Assembly: GCA_048938295.1 (NCBI GenBank)
Contig: JBHLMI010000037.1
Span: 1-22,287, forward strand
Origin: Promethearchaeota archaeon
Lineage (GTDB): Archaea; Asgardarchaeota; Hermodarchaeia; Hermodarchaeales; Hermodarchaeaceae
Direction of reading: 5' to 3'
DNA length: 22,287 nt
Shown here: positions 592 to 16,479 of the stretch, piece after piece
Layout: every line of letters begins with the position of its first letter
Numbering within the stretch: the first letter of the stretch is position 1
Position numbers and translations under genes: made by a program
The notes under the pieces: model-generated
The model's input: only the letters and a program-made list of their open reading frames with translations
Database searches by the model: none
What the model was told of the DNA's origin: nothing

Positions 592-1143
592 TTACTCATC
601 CTGAGGCATTCGGTCTCCTAGTTGATAATAGTGAAAGTCGCCTCCGGGGGCCCAGATAACGGGGTGGACTTTCTGCATGTCAAGTTTCCCCGCTGTGAGA
701 CAGTTGGGATTGACATAGGATTTAACAACACGTCCAATAATGCCGTCGTTTTGCTCATAATCTAAGATTTCTGCAACCTTACATTCGATGTTAATCGGAC
801 ATTGCTGAATCATGGGTGCGGTGTTCAACTCGCCATAAAACGTGTCAAAAAGAGTGCTTTTGTCAAAATCCCGTCCAGATTTACTACCACAAACGGCAAC
901 TTCCTTGATGAGGCTTTCCGTAGGCACGTTAACACTGAATGTGCCCTGCTCGTGTATTCCGATTCGCGTATATCGTTTTTTGTATAAGCTAAAGAACAGA
1001 TATCGCCCAAAATCAAATGGGCACATGTATCCAATCACTAGGTAATTGGGTACATCGTTGACGAGAGCACCTACCAATGCAACAGGAAGGGGACCAAACA
1101 TGTTCTTATTAAAAATCTCCTTCTTTTGATATTGGCTAATCAT
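592..1143 (-). CDS. Flavin reductase-like / flavoredoxin family FMN-binding protein
   Basis: Motifs PLPVALVGA, GTFSVNVP, CGSKSGRDFDK, APMIQQCPINIECKV are typical of the family. Start placed at ATG 1143; 1164 and later ATGs are alternatives. Confidence 0.85.
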   Translation of the reverse strand: MISQYQKKEIFNKNMFGPLPVALVGALVNDVPNYLVIGYMCPFDFGRYLFFSLYKKRYTRIGIHEQGTFSVNVPTESLIKEVAVCGSKSGRDFDKSTLFDTFYGELNTAPMIQQCPINIECKVAEILDYEQNDGIIGRVVKSYVNPNCLTAGKLDMQKVHPVIWAPGGDFHYYQLGDRMPQDE

Positions 1144-1208
1144 ATCGAATATCACCACTAGCAAATAGACAAAGGTGCCAAGTTTTCCATATTGGAAAGT
1201 TTGTGAAT

Positions 1209-1952
1209 TTACGGCGTGGGTTTGAAAGCTTCAATCTTTGCGCTTGTTGCGATGTTAAAGGGAACCTCACTCACTATTCGTATGTCGATAAATCCGGCGT
1301 CACGAATAAGTTGAAGGTACTCTTCTTTGAGGATAGCACCGCCTAGGCAACCCGTGTAGGTAGCTACTTCGTCTCGGGTTTCTTGTGGGAGAGAGGCTTC
1401 TAATACGATATCAGAGATGAGCATTCGTCCTCCAGGCCGGAGAACTCGGAAGGATTCTTGGAATACTTTGGCTTTATCCGGGGCGAGGTTGATCACGCAA
1501 TTACTAATAATAACATCTACACTTTCGTCTTCTATAGGAAGTGCTTCGATATCCCCAGATCGGAATTCAACGTTTTTTGCGCCAAGTTTCTCAGCGTTTT
1601 CCCTAGCCTTCTCAATCATGGCCAGCGTCATATCTACACCAATCACGTGGCCCGTTTTCCCAACTTGTCGGGCTGCCATAAATGCATCTAGTCCCGCGCC
1701 ACTACCTAAATCCAATACAACTTCGCCTTCTTTCAGACCAGCAAGGGCGGTGGGGTTTCCACATCCAGCAAAAGATTCTGTCACTGATTCGGGAAGATCC
1801 TCAATTGAATATCCGAGAGTTTTCGCATATTCACTTCGTGTGCCTGACCCGCAACAAGACCCTCTGGATTGAGCTACTTTTGCATAGGTTTTTCGCACTT
1901 CTTCCTTGATTTCTTCATCATCCATTTCAGTGATACGTTTCGTTTCAGTCAT
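1209..1952 (-). CDS. arsM: Arsenite S-adenosylmethionine methyltransferase
   Basis: SCCG, FAGCGNP, VLDLGSGAGLD (SAM motif I), IISNCVINL, YTGCLGGA: the conserved ArsM cysteine positions are present. Likely start ATG 1952 (MTETKR). Confidence 0.9.
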   Translation of the reverse strand: MTETKRITEMDDEEIKEEVRKTYAKVAQSRGSCCGSGTRSEYAKTLGYSIEDLPESVTESFAGCGNPTALAGLKEGEVVLDLGSGAGLDAFMAARQVGKTGHVIGVDMTLAMIEKARENAEKLGAKNVEFRSGDIEALPIEDESVDVIISNCVINLAPDKAKVFQESFRVLRPGGRMLISDIVLEASLPQETRDEVATYTGCLGGAILKEEYLQLIRDAGFIDIRIVSEVPFNIATSAKIEAFKPTP

Positions 1953-1968
1953 TTCAATACACCGAAAA

Positions 1969-2036
1969 TATCGGTTATCCGATATGTTTGTAGGCGTTAG
2001 AACACGGACACATTTAAATGTATCGGGCACCCAATA
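1969..2036. promoter_or_regulatory. Divergent arsM/padR promoter with two palindromic operator-like sites
   Basis: TATCGGTTATCCGATA (1969-1984) and TATCGGGCACCCAATA (2021-2036). A TTTAAA TATA box at 2013-2018 is 25-30 bp before the padR ATG. Confidence 0.75.
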
Positions 2037-2042
2037 ACACTT

Positions 2043-2384
2043 ATGTCAGAAGAAAATAATCCTGATGAATGCTGCCCCCCAGACTGCTGTGATATGCGGG
2101 GTATGCTATCATTTCAGATTCTCTGGGAGCTTGGGAAAATGCCTATGAATGGCCAAGAGCTAGCTGAGCAAATCGGGCTCCGACGTGGCACAAAACCTTC
2201 GCCCGGAACGATTTACCCAGCGCTCAAAGAACTCGCTCAAAAAAACTTGATTAGAGGGGAAAAGAAAGGGCGTGAAGTGACTTATACACTTACCGAGGAA
2301 GGGCGCATAGGATTGGATGTGGCCGCACGGTATTTTTATCGGGTCTTCCGTGAAATACTCGAGGCCAGTCGATCTGCGGAATAG
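2043..2384 (+). CDS. PadR-family winged-helix transcriptional regulator with an N-terminal CC-x3-CC motif
   Basis: PSPGTIYPALKEL...YTLTEEG is the PadR signature. N-terminus ECCPPDCCDMRG. Confidence 0.9.
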   Translation: MSEENNPDECCPPDCCDMRGMLSFQILWELGKMPMNGQELAEQIGLRRGTKPSPGTIYPALKELAQKNLIRGEKKGREVTYTLTEEGRIGLDVAARYFYRVFREILEASRSAE

Positions 2385-2441
2385 TTACCAATCTATTGTG
2401 GGCTTGTAATCTCTGCTGTTCTTGTAGTGGGTTGGTGTTTT

Positions 2442-2509
2442 ATTTAAATATCGGGTACCCAATACATTTAAATATCGGGTACCCAATACTATGTATCGGA
2501 CACCCAATA
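2442..2509. repeat. Tandem array of three operator-like palindromes: a perfect 24-bp duplication plus one degenerate copy
   Basis: ATTTAAATATCGGGTACCCAATAC occurs twice (2442-2465, 2466-2489), then TATCGGACACCCAATA (2494-2509). Same motif as 1969-1984 and 2021-2036. Confidence 0.9.
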
Positions 2510-2526
2510 AATACGAGGTAGATAAA

Positions 2527-2628
2527 ATGACAACCAATAAGAAATGGTGTAAACTCTGTTGCCCAACAGCAAAAATCGCCAATGATGGAAAAGCATTCGT
2601 TAAAGCCCTAATTTACAGTCGACGATAA
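2527..2628 (+). CDS. Small Cys-rich peptide (33 aa, CxxCC), putative metalloid/metal-binding
   Basis: MTTNKKWCKLCCPTAKIANDGKAFVKALIYSRR*. Preceded by GAGGT (SD-like) and the TATA/operator array. Below the ORF-track size cutoff. Confidence 0.55.
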   Translation: MTTNKKWCKLCCPTAKIANDGKAFVKALIYSRR

Positions 2629-2662
2629 ATGGAGAAAATCAATAAAAAAGGGAATGTAAAAG

Positions 2663-3319
2663 ATGACGAAAGTTAGGAACACTCCCTCACCTACTCCAAA
2701 AAGCCAACCACCCCTGCAACTTGAAGTCACCAAAGATTTCTTCCAAGTGCTACAAAAGCGTCATAGTATTCGGAAATACAAATCCTATGATATTCCTGAT
2801 TCTGATTTGGAAAAAATTCTTCAAGCCGCTCGACTCGCACCATCAACAAATAATAGCCAATCATGGCGCTTCATCGTTGTCCGAGATCCTGAAACCATAA
2901 AACTTCTAAGTCAGCCATCTCAGCAACGATTCATTGCTAACGCAAATGCGATTATTGTGGTGCTCGGGGAACGACAAAGCTCATGTTGTCCAGGCAACCA
3001 AGCGCGATGGCATCTTCAAGATCCAATGATTGCAACAGAACACCTAGTGTTGGCTGCAACAGCACTGGGTTATGGCACCTGCTGGGTTGCCGCCTATGAA
3101 TCGCGAAGTGTTGAATTCATTCAACGAATTAAAACAGAACTAGAAATCCCTGAGAACGCCGATATCATTGTTTTAGTGGCAATTGGTGTACCTGATGAAC
3201 ATCCTTCCTCCCGTTCTCGAAAGGCCTTAGAAGAGATTGCATTTGATGGAAAATATGGAATACCTTGGAGCGTTACGAACCAAGAAGATGAATCTAGATC
3301 ACATGCTTCTGCAATCTGA
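2663..3319 (+). CDS. Nitroreductase family flavoprotein
   Basis: KRHSIRKY, AARLAPSTNNSQSWRFIVV, LAATALGYGTCWV. Carries an internal SCCP motif. Confidence 0.9.
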   Translation: MTKVRNTPSPTPKSQPPLQLEVTKDFFQVLQKRHSIRKYKSYDIPDSDLEKILQAARLAPSTNNSQSWRFIVVRDPETIKLLSQPSQQRFIANANAIIVVLGERQSSCCPGNQARWHLQDPMIATEHLVLAATALGYGTCWVAAYESRSVEFIQRIKTELEIPENADIIVLVAIGVPDEHPSSRSRKALEEIAFDGKYGIPWSVTNQEDESRSHASAI

Positions 3320-3908
3320 GCTCATCACGAATGGGTATATTCGCAAATCCAGGAAACGAACCTCCCAGTTTCTTAGAAACAACATTCGGAACGACCTCAA
3401 ACAATTGAAAGCCTACTCGCTGGTAGAAGGCAAGAGCTGGCAGGTTATCATTAGTCGTCACGACAAAGAGCAGTTGACGCCCTTGTTCCTTGGCAATTTT
3501 CTCGATATGGGACATCAGATTTCTTCCGATGCCACATCCTTGAAATTGTGGAAGGACCCCTAACGCTAGGATGAGTACCACATCTGTTCGGAATGGCGTG
3601 TAAAAGAGGAACCCACCTATCCCATTATCATTTTCTGCGATCATGGCAGGGTGTTCAGTCACCTTGAATTGTTGATCAAACATCAGTTGCATCGGATCTC
3701 CCCAAAACAAGGTCACTAACGCTTTAAGGGACTCCGAATCCTCACAGGATGCTTGACGAATTCGATACTCACATTGTTTCCGCGAAGCACACTTGGTGCA
3801 CTTGACGCGTATTCGTGCATCATTTGCACAAACTAGCTCTCCACAATGTGAACAGGAATACTCCGCATGATTTTGGCAGAGAGAACAGGACTCATAGTCA
3901 ATTGGCAT
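3294..3908 (-). CDS. GNAT N-acetyltransferase with an N-terminal Cys-rich zinc-finger-like domain
   Basis: Acetyl-CoA motif VLPQFQGCGIG, TTNDNLPALAFYQRVGF and C-terminal IPIRDEL. N-terminus CxxC-x7-CxxC-x4-C-x9-CxxC. Confidence 0.85.
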   Translation of the reverse strand: MPIDYESCSLCQNHAEYSCSHCGELVCANDARIRVKCTKCASRKQCEYRIRQASCEDSESLKALVTLFWGDPMQLMFDQQFKVTEHPAMIAENDNGIGGFLFYTPFRTDVVLILALGVLPQFQGCGIGRNLMSHIEKIAKEQGRQLLFVVTTNDNLPALAFYQRVGFQLFEVVPNVVSKKLGGSFPGFANIPIRDELRLQKHVI

Positions 3909-4309: not shown

Positions 4310-5035
4310 TTGTCACAGGCCACTGACAAGCTTCCGGAAAAACTCGTGAAATACGGTCATGTTGTCCGTTCAGCCATTTCCTTGCTAGGTGAACGTTACA
4401 CGACGTTTCATGAGCACATTCATGCCGCTCTCACTCATTTGATCCAAGCGAAGAAACAGTTTCGAGCCTATAACAAACAACTCCGTGGCTATATCAGACC
4501 AAAACAACAAAAGGAGCTGTTCGCCACTCTCCGAAAATTCATCAAGGACCAGAAAAAAGCTCCTCCCCCAATAAAGACTACACTCAAGGATTTTTACTCC
4601 CTTCTGAATCAGCTCTCAAAGGCAATTACCAATATCGAAAAGCAACTGACAAAATCCCAATCGATGCTAAATTATAACCAGTTCTTCAAGGAAATCACCG
4701 TGCACCTAAAGGAGTCAATCACGCAGGCAGACCACTCAGAGACCCTACAACAGAAAGTCATCGCCAAATACAAGGAAACTGAACGGTACTCGCCAGCCGT
4801 GTGTGAAGCCTACATTCATGACTGGCTAAAACGGTGCAACGAAGACTACATCGACATCACTTTCCGCGACTGCAAAGAATTAACAAAAGTAGGCTATGAA
4901 GCCTGTCGTGCGCTGTATGAAACCGATAAGATCACTGAAGCCCAGATTGACGATATTCTAGCGGTCACACGAGAAGGTCGAATGAAAACCCAGCAACTCC
5001 TAGTCCTTGTCCAACGTCTTCAGCCCACAAAATAA
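4310..5035 (+). CDS. Hypothetical all-alpha-helical, lysine-rich protein (241 aa)
   Basis: Long ORF with a TTG start after AGGGAG. Amphipathic helical composition. No family recognised. Confidence 0.75.
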   Translation: MSQATDKLPEKLVKYGHVVRSAISLLGERYTTFHEHIHAALTHLIQAKKQFRAYNKQLRGYIRPKQQKELFATLRKFIKDQKKAPPPIKTTLKDFYSLLNQLSKAITNIEKQLTKSQSMLNYNQFFKEITVHLKESITQADHSETLQQKVIAKYKETERYSPAVCEAYIHDWLKRCNEDYIDITFRDCKELTKVGYEACRALYETDKITEAQIDDILAVTREGRMKTQQLLVLVQRLQPTK

Positions 5036-5399: not shown

Positions 5400-6707
5400 T
5401 GTGTACCATTGATAGTTGTAAGAATTTCAGAGCTGAACCAAATGCCTACTGGTAAGCCAGAGAAAGAAACTAAGAGGAAGGCCTACCAGAGTGTATTGAT
5501 TCATAGGGGATATAAATACGAATTAAAGCCCAACAATAGGCAAAAAACATTACTAGCAAAATTTGTTGGTTGTGCCCGATTTGCTTATAATTGGGGGCTA
5601 GAACAACGAATTACACTATTGCAAACTCAGAAGGGGAGAGAACGCTTCACAAATGCCATAAGACAATACCATGAGTTAGTTCAGCTGAAAAGAACTGAAT
5701 TTACTTGGTTGAATGAAGTATCTAAATGGGTCCCACAAGAGGCCCTCCGTGATCTTGAAAAAGCCTTCAAAAATTATTGGAGAGGAAAGAAGAATGGCAA
5801 AAACGTAGGCTTTCCTAAATTCAAAAGAAAGGGCTACCACGACAGTTTTCGGTTATATGCAACCATTCGAGTCTATAGGAAGACAGTTCAACTCCCCCGG
5901 TTGGGTCAAATACGGTTAAAAGAAACTCCACAAATCAAAGGACGAATTCTTTTTGCCACTGTGTCGCGCAAAGCTGATCGATGGTTTGTTAGTTTTAATG
6001 TGGAACAAGTGAGATCTGAAACACTATCAGTAACAGGTCCAACAATAGGAGTTGATTTAGGAATCGTGTTAGCAACCCTTTCTAATGGGATAGTATTCGA
6101 AAATCCCCGAGCTTTATCTCGACGATTACGAAAACTCAGGCGTCTATCCAAACAATTCTCAAGAAAACGAAGAGGATCACAAAACCGTCAAAAAGCCGTT
6201 ATAAGACTAGCACGTCTTCATTGGCACATCAGCAATATTCGAAAGGATTCTCTTCATAAAGTAACATCTTATTTGGCTAAGAACCACAGCCAAACCGTCA
6301 TCGAAGACCTAAGGGTGTATGAGATGTTAAAAAATAAACCACTTAGCTTTTTCCTTGCTGATGTCAGTCTAAGCGAGTTTCGACGGCAACTCGAGTACAA
6401 GACTAAGTGGTATGGAACGGAACTTATCGTCGCTCCTCACTTTTTTCCATCTTCCAAACGATGTTCACGGTGTGGAAATATCAAAAAGACTCTATTACTA
6501 TCCGAGCGTTTGTATAACTGCGAGTTTTGTGGACTGACTCTTGACAGAGACCTTAATGCGGCGAATAATTTGGTCGCCGCCAGTTGGGCGGAGACGGTAA
6601 ATGCCTGTCAAGAGGTGGGAGGTTACAGATCCGACGGATCAGTGCCCACCGATGAAACAGGAACCAAACACCATCAACCATCTTGATGGATAAGTTTTGG
6701 ACAACGG
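5400..6707 (+). mobile_element. Non-autonomous tnpB-only insertion sequence (IS607/IS1341-like); left end not resolved
   Basis: tnpB without an adjacent tnpA. The sequence ends AAGTTTTGGACAACGG (to 6707), resembling the ...AACGG right ends I recall for IS607-type elements. The left coordinate is approximate. Confidence 0.65.
5442..6686 (+). CDS. tnpB: RNA-guided endonuclease TnpB (IS200/IS605/IS607 superfamily)
   Basis: N-terminal HTH (YKYELKPN...GCARFAYNWGL), RuvC-I GVDLG, RuvC-II VIEDL, Zn finger CSRC...CEFC, RuvC-III DRDLNAA. Start uncertain (5409, 5442 or later). Confidence 0.95.
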   Translation: MPTGKPEKETKRKAYQSVLIHRGYKYELKPNNRQKTLLAKFVGCARFAYNWGLEQRITLLQTQKGRERFTNAIRQYHELVQLKRTEFTWLNEVSKWVPQEALRDLEKAFKNYWRGKKNGKNVGFPKFKRKGYHDSFRLYATIRVYRKTVQLPRLGQIRLKETPQIKGRILFATVSRKADRWFVSFNVEQVRSETLSVTGPTIGVDLGIVLATLSNGIVFENPRALSRRLRKLRRLSKQFSRKRRGSQNRQKAVIRLARLHWHISNIRKDSLHKVTSYLAKNHSQTVIEDLRVYEMLKNKPLSFFLADVSLSEFRRQLEYKTKWYGTELIVAPHFFPSSKRCSRCGNIKKTLLLSERLYNCEFCGLTLDRDLNAANNLVAASWAETVNACQEVGGYRSDGSVPTDETGTKHHQPS

Positions 6708-15343: not shown

Positions 15344-15420
15344 TGGTGGGCCGGCCGTGATTTGAACACGGGACCTCCGCCGTGTCAGGACGGCGTCATA
15401 ACCAACTAGACCACCGGCCC
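15344..15420 (-). tRNA. trnV: tRNA-Val(GAC); CCA encoded
   Basis: GGGCCGG...CCGTC-CTGACAC-GGCGG...CCGGCCC-ACCA. Lies 5 nt upstream of tRNA-Phe, so likely co-transcribed. Confidence 0.96.
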
Positions 15421-16404: not shown

Positions 16405-16479
16405 GCGCTGTTGGTCTAGTGGCTAGGACTCCAGCCTGCCACGCTGGGTGCCCGGGTTCAAATCCCGGACAGCGCACCA
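16405..16479 (+). tRNA. trnG: tRNA-Gly(GCC); CCA encoded
   Basis: GCGCTGT...CCAGC-CTGCCAC-GCTGG...ACAGCGC-ACCA, 75 nt. Confidence 0.97.

Follow-up and report, generated by a model that had tools for sequence, protein, structure and literature searches.

Gene content of the padR-arsM locus

The window, by which we mean the whole 22,287-nucleotide stretch of DNA that was analysed, stems from an Asgard (Hermodarchaeota-like) MAG and carries between positions 592 and 3908 a divergent padR-arsM pair and the genes on either side of it. Matches to Pfam and NCBIfam profiles bore out all of the gene positions given in an earlier note made from the sequence. The features are listed below.

592 to 1143 (ATG at 1143) or 592 to 1164 (TTG at 1164), minus strand: flavoredoxin-type FMN protein (Flavin_Reduct, PF01613)
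1209 to 1952, minus strand: arsM, encoding a short-form ArsM of 247 aa, an As(III) SAM-methyltransferase family protein (NF008823)
1969 to 1984, strand not applicable: predicted operator O_M, the perfect-arm palindrome TATCGG-N4-CCGATA, 16 nt 5' of the arsM start codon
2013 to 2019, strand not applicable: TATA box TTTAAAT, common to the divergent arsM and padR promoters, as read from the sequence
2021 to 2036, plus strand: predicted operator O_R, an exact motif match that follows the TATA box and precedes the padR ATG
2043 to 2384, plus strand: padR, encoding a PadR-family repressor of 113 aa with the tail CCPPDCC (PF03551)
2449 to 2509, plus strand: array of three predicted operators (2449-2464, 2473-2488 and 2494-2509) with two interleaved TTTAAAT boxes
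2527 to 2628, plus strand: ORF for a 33-aa basic peptide with C8, C11 and C12, with a GAGGT Shine-Dalgarno sequence 5' of it
2663 to 3319, plus strand: nitroreductase-family FMN protein with the loop SCCPGN (PF00881)
3294 to 3908, minus strand: Zn-ribbon GNAT

The flavoredoxin gene and arsM lie on the minus strand, divergent from padR, and the former, which is downstream of arsM, is probably part of the arsM transcript; the peptide ORF and then the nitroreductase gene follow downstream of padR. Genes for ArsR, ArsC and Acr3 are absent from the window, as had been claimed, and its other ORFs that we scanned are housekeeping genes and TnpB. Elsewhere in the genome, contig C18 carries Acr3, C4 a second ArsM and C22 a single ArsR/SmtB protein, and the genome search returned no Grx-type ArsC and no confident LMW-type ArsC. 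The protein on C22 was considered as the arsenic sensor and rejected, as it is without a CVC-type site and its gene sits before Nuo/Mbh-like genes.

Four adjacent products had been noted as carrying CC pairs, and all four were found: SCCG in ArsM, ECCPPDCCD in PadR, CKLCC in the peptide and SCCP in the nitroreductase. These pairs are also kept in orthologues, with loss of the nitroreductase pair in one genus. CC occurs in just ~6.5-7% of the long ORFs of this genome; thus, a run of four CC-bearing products is not due to chance.

A PadR-family protein with a conserved cysteine tail

The padR product matches PF03551 over residues 27-90 (42.9 bits, cut-off 27) and is a member of that family. It is not a member of the ArsR/SmtB family, as it scored 25.8 bits against NF033788 (cut-off 55) and PF01022 was unreported. 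Its AF2 model (pLDDT 84.7) has the short PadR-s2 architecture, a winged HTH followed by a long C-terminal helix, with predicted helices at residues 17-32, 37-48 and 54-66, a wing at 70-83, the long helix at 85-111, and residues 1-16 unstructured. The best PDB match has an E value of 4e-10. RosR-type proteins are among the nearest solved relatives, and Rv3488, a PadR linked to Cd, is matched weakly in both NCBIfam and the PDB.

In an alignment of 24 sequences, C11, P12, C15 and C16 are invariant, and the residues that precede the CC just before helix 1 are free to vary. We found that this CC is invariant in a large archaeal PadR subfamily in which CCPPDCC is the usual form; certain members, found beside other genes, have the proximal CC alone or a C-x5-C tail, and Thorarchaeota members have an additional C-terminal CxC or CxxC. 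Four clustered cysteines would serve equally well for binding Cd, Cu(I), Hg or Zn, for holding an Fe-S cluster or as a thiol-redox switch, and we infer As(III) or MAs(III) as the signal from the partner gene and from thiol chemistry.

The tail might bind a soft metal (Cu(I), Cd, Hg or Zn) or an Fe-S cluster, with the neighbouring methyltransferase acting on Hg, Se or Te, for example. Such a sensor would account for four cysteines that fit tetrahedral or cluster coordination, for the extra C-terminal motifs of the Thorarchaeota members and for the weak match to Rv3488. However, the vicinal CC stands alone in several members, and a single chain would then have fewer ligands than a tetrahedral site needs, although the pair suffices for MAs(III).

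ArsM is the conserved partner of PadR

The partner enzyme scored 316.1 bits against NF008823 (316.6 in the whole-genome search), above the cut-off of 263, and its top PDB matches are the ArsM structures 5evj, 4fr0 and 4kw7. Its motifs SCCG, GCGNP, SNCV and GCLGG align to ArsM structures at positions equivalent to C44, C72, C174 and C224 of CmArsM, and the corresponding Cys33, 64, 152 and 202 are conserved in 60-61 of the 61 sequences aligned (60 PadR-linked orthologues and the window ArsM). It has in common with CmArsM (4fr0/4fs8) and CrArsM (5evj) the SAM-binding core and the four catalytic or arsenic-binding cysteines, but it is a short form, and the C-terminal domain seen in the algal enzymes is missing; its activity is a prediction from sequence. 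In many of its relatives the N terminus carries additional CC repeats.

PadR has beside it a divergently encoded ArsM with the full set of four catalytic cysteines in 73 of 80 loci, these being the best-matching PadR loci in species genomes out of more than 582; the counts include many loci from related lineages and hence are not independent. The pairing spans Thor-, Hermod- and Hodarchaeota, Bathyarchaeia and Methanosuratincola, and among orthologous loci within the family ArsM lies beside PadR in 17 of 17. One genome with such a pair is that of Candidatus Methanosuratincola verstraetei LCB70 (L087). The lack of a neighbourhood link between PadR homologues and arsM had been named beforehand as an outcome that would refute the proposal, and the result, a link over several phyla, is strongly positive. 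Any other neighbour is common to at most 16 of the 80 loci. In some Thorarchaeota a UbiE/MenG-like methyltransferase gene follows padR, which we put down to lineage synteny.

No classical ars gene and no metal efflux or chaperone gene is among the conserved neighbours of PadR in the 80 best loci. The second of these results, together with a partner enzyme that lies above the curated ArsM cut-off, argues against a metal or Fe-S sensor, which we consider distinctly improbable.

One palindrome marks three promoters

The operator motif TATCGGRYACCCAATA has exact matches at 2021, 2449, 2473 and 2494, and a perfect-arm variant at 1969-1984. Written as the 16-bp palindrome TATYGG-N4-CCRATA, it has five copies, all in the three promoters; no copy lies outside these promoters in the whole 2.5-Mb genome, and the number of matches expected in shuffled sequence is 0. 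The proposal that a single operator-like motif joins the arsM, padR and peptide/nitroreductase promoters is therefore upheld, with five genome-unique sites. With O_R flanked by the TATA box on one side and the padR ATG on the other, the padR mRNA would be nearly leaderless, and O_R is the putative site of padR autorepression. The array at 2449-2509 is the promoter of the peptide-nitroreductase unit, and the same triple array is repeated at 10 orthologue loci of the genus (L129-L137 and L150).

In relatives from several phyla, at least one palindrome site is present in 78 of 79 loci and at least two in 61 of 79. The TATA-operator-ATG layout is the same in relatives of padR: most of their upstream sequences have TTTAAAT or ATATAAAT immediately 5' of the operator, and in most of the 79 the O_R equivalent lies at -69 relative to the DMRG codons. 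A second site adjoining the arsM start, equivalent to O_M, is likewise present in most relatives. The comparative evidence shows TATYGG-N4-CCRATA to be the predicted recognition site of the PadR repressor.

The Acr3 gene on contig C18 was considered as a further target, as an 11-nt match to the core of the arsM-proximal operator lies ~30 nt 5' of its ATG. This match has decayed in the closest relative and is missing from six further ones, and we judged it to be chance; neither Acr3 nor the second genomic ArsM is under the palindrome operator.

The regulon extends to unlinked flavoprotein genes

The flavoredoxin matches PF01613 (58.5 bits, cut-off 27), and its best solved relative is the flavoredoxin 3bnk (E 4e-33). 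The nitroreductase matches PF00881 (93.4 bits, cut-off 23.5) and reached no NCBIfam equivalog, the best being BluB at 59.9 bits against a cut-off of 150.

A complete Thorarchaeota chromosome has the strict motif at three loci only, which are 0.15-0.5 Mb apart: at padR-arsM, 5' of the nitroreductase orthologue and 5' of the flavoredoxin orthologue. Nitroreductase orthologues (at least 53% identity) have one to three upstream operators wherever upstream DNA is available (10 of 10), compared with 0 of 7 paralogues (~40% identity), which are also without CC. Flavoredoxin orthologues carry the operator in PadR-bearing Thorarchaeota, and none of the 13 from Asgard families that lack this PadR has it. 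Since the operator is found on unlinked flavoprotein orthologues, and not on paralogues or on the orthologues of PadR-less families, the regulon is real. The occurrence of the operator on these unlinked genes is new here. Five near-complete Thorarchaeota genomes without a nitroreductase orthologue yielded no recurrent extra regulon gene, and have single sites only, at the rate of the reversed-pattern control.

These results bear on a further alternative, namely a plain autoregulated PadR whose cysteine tail is structural or irrelevant and whose gene association is inherited synteny only. In its favour, many loci stem from related lineages, so that the counts are not independent. However, the gene pair and the operator are retained from phylum to phylum although every other neighbour differs, the operator accompanies flavoprotein genes to unlinked loci, and the CC is invariant next to residues that vary freely; we regard this alternative as very improbable.

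The 33-aa peptide matched nothing in Pfam or NCBIfam. Its ORF of 32-33 codons is intact in 9 of 9 sequences (the window and eight related species), each with at least two Cys, and mismatches by codon position (0.44/0.35/0.58) have a coding signature; the peptide is specific to this genus. On the comparative evidence the regulon is shown to have as its predicted members padR, arsM, the flavoredoxin gene, the CC-bearing nitroreductase gene and, in this genus only, the peptide. This supports the claim of a single regulon in which arsM, padR and the peptide/nitroreductase unit are joined through a Cys-tailed PadR and its operator, with the unlinked flavoprotein genes also operator-marked. The GNAT, which was considered as a member, falls outside: the motif search of the window and genome found no operator upstream of it, and its ArsN matches are far below the cut-offs (27.4 bits against a cut-off of 125 for NF040501, and 23.3 against 170 for NF040503). 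The earlier interpretation is partly supported: the regulon with Cys-tailed PadR, arsM and flavoproteins stands, and metalloid sensing is a putative part of it.

Flavoredoxins and nitroreductases are typical of regulons that respond to electrophile or oxidant stress. The same PadR and operator could form a general sensor of thiol-reactive stress (oxidant, electrophile or quinone), resembling YodB/QsrR-type regulons or the PadR-like RosR of Halobacterium, in which the tail undergoes oxidation or alkylation, the flavoproteins carry out the detoxification and the ArsM-like enzyme is a side member. The identity of the operator-marked partners, the proximity of RosR-type structures to PadR and a regulon without a classical ars gene all fit such a sensor. 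However, it is ArsM that is the universal core partner, the flavoproteins being regulon members in some Asgard lineages only; the window ArsM retains every arsenic-binding cysteine, and redox sensing leaves the PadR-ArsM pairing across phyla unexplained. We therefore consider a stress sensor unlikely.

A putative arsenic switch outside the ArsR family

The explanation that we favour, and hold to be moderately probable, is a self-contained archaeal regulon under a PadR-family repressor whose tail senses a trivalent arsenical and which controls ArsM and the flavoproteins. The Cys-tailed PadR is thus probably a non-ArsR arsenic switch, albeit a putative one. Several results speak against the arsenic reading: the operator does not cover the Acr3 and second ArsM genes of the genome, classical ars genes are missing among the conserved neighbours, some subfamily members with reduced tails sit beside other genes, one genus has lost the nitroreductase CC, and both the clustered cysteines and the flavoproteins would fit other signals. 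PadR would act as a dimer, as its family does, and its binding would block TBP, TFB or RNA polymerase: the padR site lies between the TATA box and the presumed leaderless start, the arsM site just downstream of the likely transcription start, and three operator copies would cover the peptide/nitroreductase promoter. The flexible N-terminal tail CCPPDCC, with its vicinal CC abutting helix 1, may bind As(III), MAs(III) or Sb(III), and coordination by two to three thiolates would distort helix 1 and the dimer, such that DNA is released, analogously to ArsR and MarR_ars on a different scaffold. Derepression would yield more ArsM, and the two flavoproteins would probably give reducing power for recycling of the ArsM disulfide or for reduction of pentavalent arsenic. 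A role in "detoxification" is doubtful in anoxic organisms.

It is possible, and we suggest it only tentatively, that the Cys-tailed PadR truly senses As(III)/MAs(III) and that the operator-marked flavoredoxin, the CC-nitroreductase and, in this genus, the peptide constitute an unrecognised flavin-dependent branch of anaerobic arsenic methylation. If so, Cys-tailed PadR proteins would add a third structural family to the arsenic-responsive repressors, and in Thor- and Hermodarchaeota and Bathyarchaeia the principal one; the flavin branch would stand in for ArsC and thioredoxin, either by recycling the ArsM disulfide or by reducing pentavalent arsenicals. Arsenic methylation influences how mobile and how toxic arsenic is in anoxic sediments and soils. 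To our knowledge, little is established about its control in uncultured sediment archaea, and ArsR/SmtB proteins, joined recently by MarR_ars, are currently credited with almost all arsenic sensing. The present system is a readable one, with a 113-aa protein, a 16-bp site and a regulon defined by site conservation across phyla; PadR and its operator are candidate parts for an arsenic biosensor, and the two flavoproteins are specific candidates for the reductant that anaerobic ArsM chemistry still lacks.

Comparison with known systems

We found no description of this system in the literature on PadR with ArsM, arsenic or metalloregulators. The earlier note had mentioned a PadR-type metalloid repressor in bacteria, which was not found; the nearest are ChrI of Bacillus cereus SJ1, a chromate-induced PadR-type regulator (PMC2936356), and MarR_ars, an As(III)/Sb(III) repressor of the MarR type which senses via vicinal Cys36-Cys37 and Cys157 and which in Achromobacter (AdMarR_ars) keeps both its own gene and a divergently oriented arsenic gene repressed (bioRxiv 10.1101/2021.08.12.456183). 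MarR_ars is a precedent for recruitment of a non-ArsR winged-helix family to arsenic sensing through a vicinal Cys pair and a third Cys. However, it is bacterial, has the MarR fold and controls arsV, whereas the present protein is archaeal, has the PadR fold, is associated with arsM and flavoproteins, and is predicted to sense arsenic.

With the B. subtilis PadR/LmrR type (PadR-s2), ChrI, Rv3488, RosR and TA0346, the window PadR shares fold, size and a winged HTH with one long C-terminal helix, and, as in known PadR members, autoregulation via a palindrome overlapping its own promoter is predicted. None of these proteins has a CCPPDCC tail or is linked to arsM, and their similarity to the window PadR is distant.

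As(III)-responsive repressors of the ArsR/SmtB family include R773 ArsR, C. glutamicum ArsR1 (N-terminal Cys15-Cys16) and A. ferrooxidans ArsR. Like them, the window PadR is a small, predicted dimeric winged-helix repressor, putatively autoregulated and encoded beside an arsenic gene, and its release by a cysteine-bound trivalent arsenical is predicted. It differs from them in family, in its operator and archaeal TATA-occlusion layout, and in a cysteine site that is a flexible tail before helix 1.

The synthetic tetracysteine biarsenical tag CCPGCC (FlAsH) chelates trivalent arsenic with high affinity and has a two-residue spacer. The PadR tail resembles it in having two vicinal Cys pairs around a Pro-containing turn, but is natural and has a spacer of three residues, or of five in many Bathyarchaeia.

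Gene content and the identity of ArsM

The window corresponds to contig C57 in a MAG of 2.5 Mb and 66 contigs (91.6% complete), assigned to Hermodarchaeota (Asgard archaea) by the names that its close homologues bear. An ORF and family scan found six ORFs within 592-3908, and bore out the gene set and layout described in an earlier note, with arsM and a flavin reductase gene on the minus strand divergent from padR on the plus strand:

592-1143/1164, minus strand: Flavin_Reduct protein (flavoredoxin)
1209-1952, minus strand: predicted ArsM-family methyltransferase
2043-2384, plus strand: PadR
2527-2628, plus strand: 33-codon ORF
2663-3319, plus strand: nitroreductase
3294-3908, minus strand: GNAT with Zn-ribbon, convergent with the nitroreductase gene

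The remaining ORFs scanned include TnpB and the housekeeping proteins eIF6, FtsY/SRP54, Trm5 and OTCase. The two tRNA genes, tRNA-Val(GAC) (15344-15420, minus) and tRNA-Gly(GCC) (16405-16479, plus), bracket an AT-rich stretch. TnpB (5409-6686, plus) is a solo TnpB/IS605 OrfB with HTH_OrfB, OrfB_IS605 and Cas12f-like TNB domains, and the ORFs listed near it include no TnpA; a 241-aa ORF at 4310-5035 (plus) has no family match above cut-off.

As judged from its sequence, the 1209-1952 product is an ArsM-family methyltransferase of predicted activity. It scores 316 bits on the NCBIfam ArsM model NF008823 (cut-off 263), its best matches among solved structures are ArsM proteins, and the four Cys equivalent to the catalytic set are kept in 60-61 of the 61 aligned ArsM sequences (60 PadR-linked orthologues and the window's own). 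It is a short form, lacking the C-terminal domain of algal ArsM.

PadR and ArsM are linked across archaea

In the family to which the window belongs, PadR is present in 17 of 18 genomes, and ArsM adjoins it divergently at all 17 loci. A scan with one genome per species yielded at least 582 PadR loci, the best 80 of which were inspected for neighbours. The module proposed earlier would have been undermined had PadR homologues shown no link to arsM; a divergent adjoining ArsM was found at 73 of these 80 loci, in Thor-, Hermod- and Hodarchaeota, Bathyarchaeia, Methanosuratincola and others. Leaving aside PadR, ArsM and their antisense shadow ORFs, no other neighbour cluster occurs at more than 16 of the 80, and the recurring minor neighbours (aspartyl protease, TBP, a DHODH-like protein) are lineage-specific. 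The seven exceptions have no adjacent arsM, or have a PadR of the C-x5-C variant, with glyoxalase-like and luciferase-like genes next to it.

At two loci from Nitrososphaerales/Gagatemarchaeum (L098, L104), C-x5-C PadR relatives have the same operator type, their neighbours being a gene of glyoxalase type and a luciferase-like oxidoreductase rather than arsM; these relatives may form a sister subfamily that answers to another cue. At three others (L140 and L142 of an Asgard family, L091 of Hodarchaeota), arsM is missing from the locus, and it is the CC-nitroreductase gene that stands divergent to the PadR homologue, with two operators in the intervening DNA.

A shared operator

Exact matches to TATCGGRYACCCAATA start at 2021, 2449, 2473 and 2494, and a variant with perfect arms lies at 1969-1984; shuffles predict zero matches. 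No further copies of the 16-mer were found in the whole 2.5-Mb genome, and the idea that one motif joins the arsM, padR and peptide/nitroreductase promoters holds, with five sites and none elsewhere. At padR, the operator (2021-2036) comes straight after TTTAAAT (2013-2019) and takes up the space between TATA box and gene start, and the ATG lies at 2043; because these elements adjoin so closely, the padR mRNA would be nearly leaderless. The arsM-side operator ends 16 nt upstream of the arsM ATG, and three operators alternate with two TTTAAAT boxes upstream of the GAGGT and ATG of the 33-codon peptide. Among 79 relatives' loci, from the best of at least 582, the order of TATA, operator and start is kept; one or more operator-like sites precede padR in 78 of them, and two or more in 61. 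Strong comparative evidence makes the repressor, operator and regulon structure very probable.

The operator defines a flavoprotein regulon

One complete Thorarchaeota chromosome has the strict motif TATYGG-N4-CCRATA in just three places (reversed-pattern control, 0 matches): the padR-arsM locus, a pair of sites immediately 5' of the nitroreductase orthologue, and a single site 22 nt upstream of the flavoredoxin orthologue. In a 201-genome Asgard sample, all nitroreductase orthologues (at least 53% identity) with upstream DNA have one to three operators, including those in nitroreductase-flavoredoxin operons far from padR; paralogues of about 40% identity have neither operator nor CC loop. Flavoredoxin orthologues bear the operator in PadR-bearing Thorarchaeota and lack it in 13 of 13 cases from Asgard families without this PadR. 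Site and factor therefore co-occur, and in the window's genus the three regulon units are simply brought together at one locus. This operator-defined flavoprotein regulon is a new result of the present analysis.

Three complete Bathyarchaeota genomes carry the strict motif at the padR locus alone, a search of Methanosuratincola found no copy, and in five further Thorarchaeota genomes non-padR sites are no commoner than the reversed-pattern control. The core of the regulon is hence padR-arsM, with the flavoproteins an addition in Asgard.

Cysteine pairs

Only 6.5-7% of long ORFs in the window's genome contain CC. The SCCPGN loop of the nitroreductase is kept in all operator-linked orthologues but one genus. 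The 33-codon ORF, restricted to the window's genus, is intact in nine of nine sequences (the window and eight related species), retains at least two Cys and the C-terminal motif, and behaves as coding sequence, given its mismatch of 0.44/0.35/0.58 by codon position. In one congener (G011), the place between triple operator and nitroreductase that this peptide occupies in the other congeners examined is taken by a class I SAM methyltransferase of 208 aa that carries CxxxxC at its C-terminal end (L132:2258-2884, minus).

A word-index search for relatives of the PadR returned 1114 protein clusters at 90% identity. Among the best 120 of these, 105 carry a CC-x3-CC tail, exactly CCPPDCC in 98, immediately before DMRG and helix 1. 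C11, P12, C15 and C16 are invariant in a 24-sequence alignment, and C10 nearly so. Many Bathyarchaeia PadRs have CC-x5-CC, C-x2-C-x3-CC or the proximal CC alone, and Thorarchaeota PadRs have an extra C-terminal CxC or CxxC. In most Thorarchaeota homologues (P0019-P0120) this pair (DCxC or CxxC) follows a short beta-like extension; Hermodarchaeota PadRs lack it. The AF2 model (pLDDT 84.7) is a short PadR fold with residues 1-16 unstructured, and the closest solved structures are the distant PadR-likes TA0346, RosR and Rv3488.

Vicinal Cys pairs are the arsenic-binding element of ArsR variants. MarR_ars also binds arsenic through such a pair (bioRxiv 10.1101/2021.08.12.456183). We infer that the PadR ligand is a trivalent arsenical, because its universal partner is an enzyme with As(III) as substrate, because its sensor element, a vicinal Cys pair in a flexible tail, is invariant, and because such pairs bind arsenic in both regulator types. 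PadR might instead sense thiol stress, a soft metal or Fe-S. "Detoxification" is a doubtful role under anoxia, since the MAs(III) that anoxic methylation gives is more toxic. The literature searched had no account of an arsenic regulator of PadR type; the nearest are the PadR-type, chromate-induced ChrI (PMC2936356) and MarR_ars.

Genes outside the regulon

A second ArsM (C4:57725-58609; L117:5726-6610), which shares 59% identity and passes the NF008823 cut-off, has neither PadR nor operator and adjoins serine dehydratase genes. Acr3 (C18:4271-5317; L116) stands alone, without an adjacent regulator; operator control was rejected, as the 11 nt that agree with the core of the arsM-side operator, some 30 nt before the Acr3 ATG, are unconserved in relatives. 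The single strong ArsR/SmtB of the genome (C22) lies before Nuo/Mbh-like genes, lacks the CVC site and has no link to the operator. No Grx-type ArsC was found in the genome, and its sole LMW-type match falls below cut-off. The GNAT was rejected as a regulon member or ArsN, having no operator and scoring below the NCBIfam ArsN models. It has an N-terminal double CxxC zinc ribbon and a 26-bp overlap with the nitroreductase 3' end, and its synteny is kept in some congeners.
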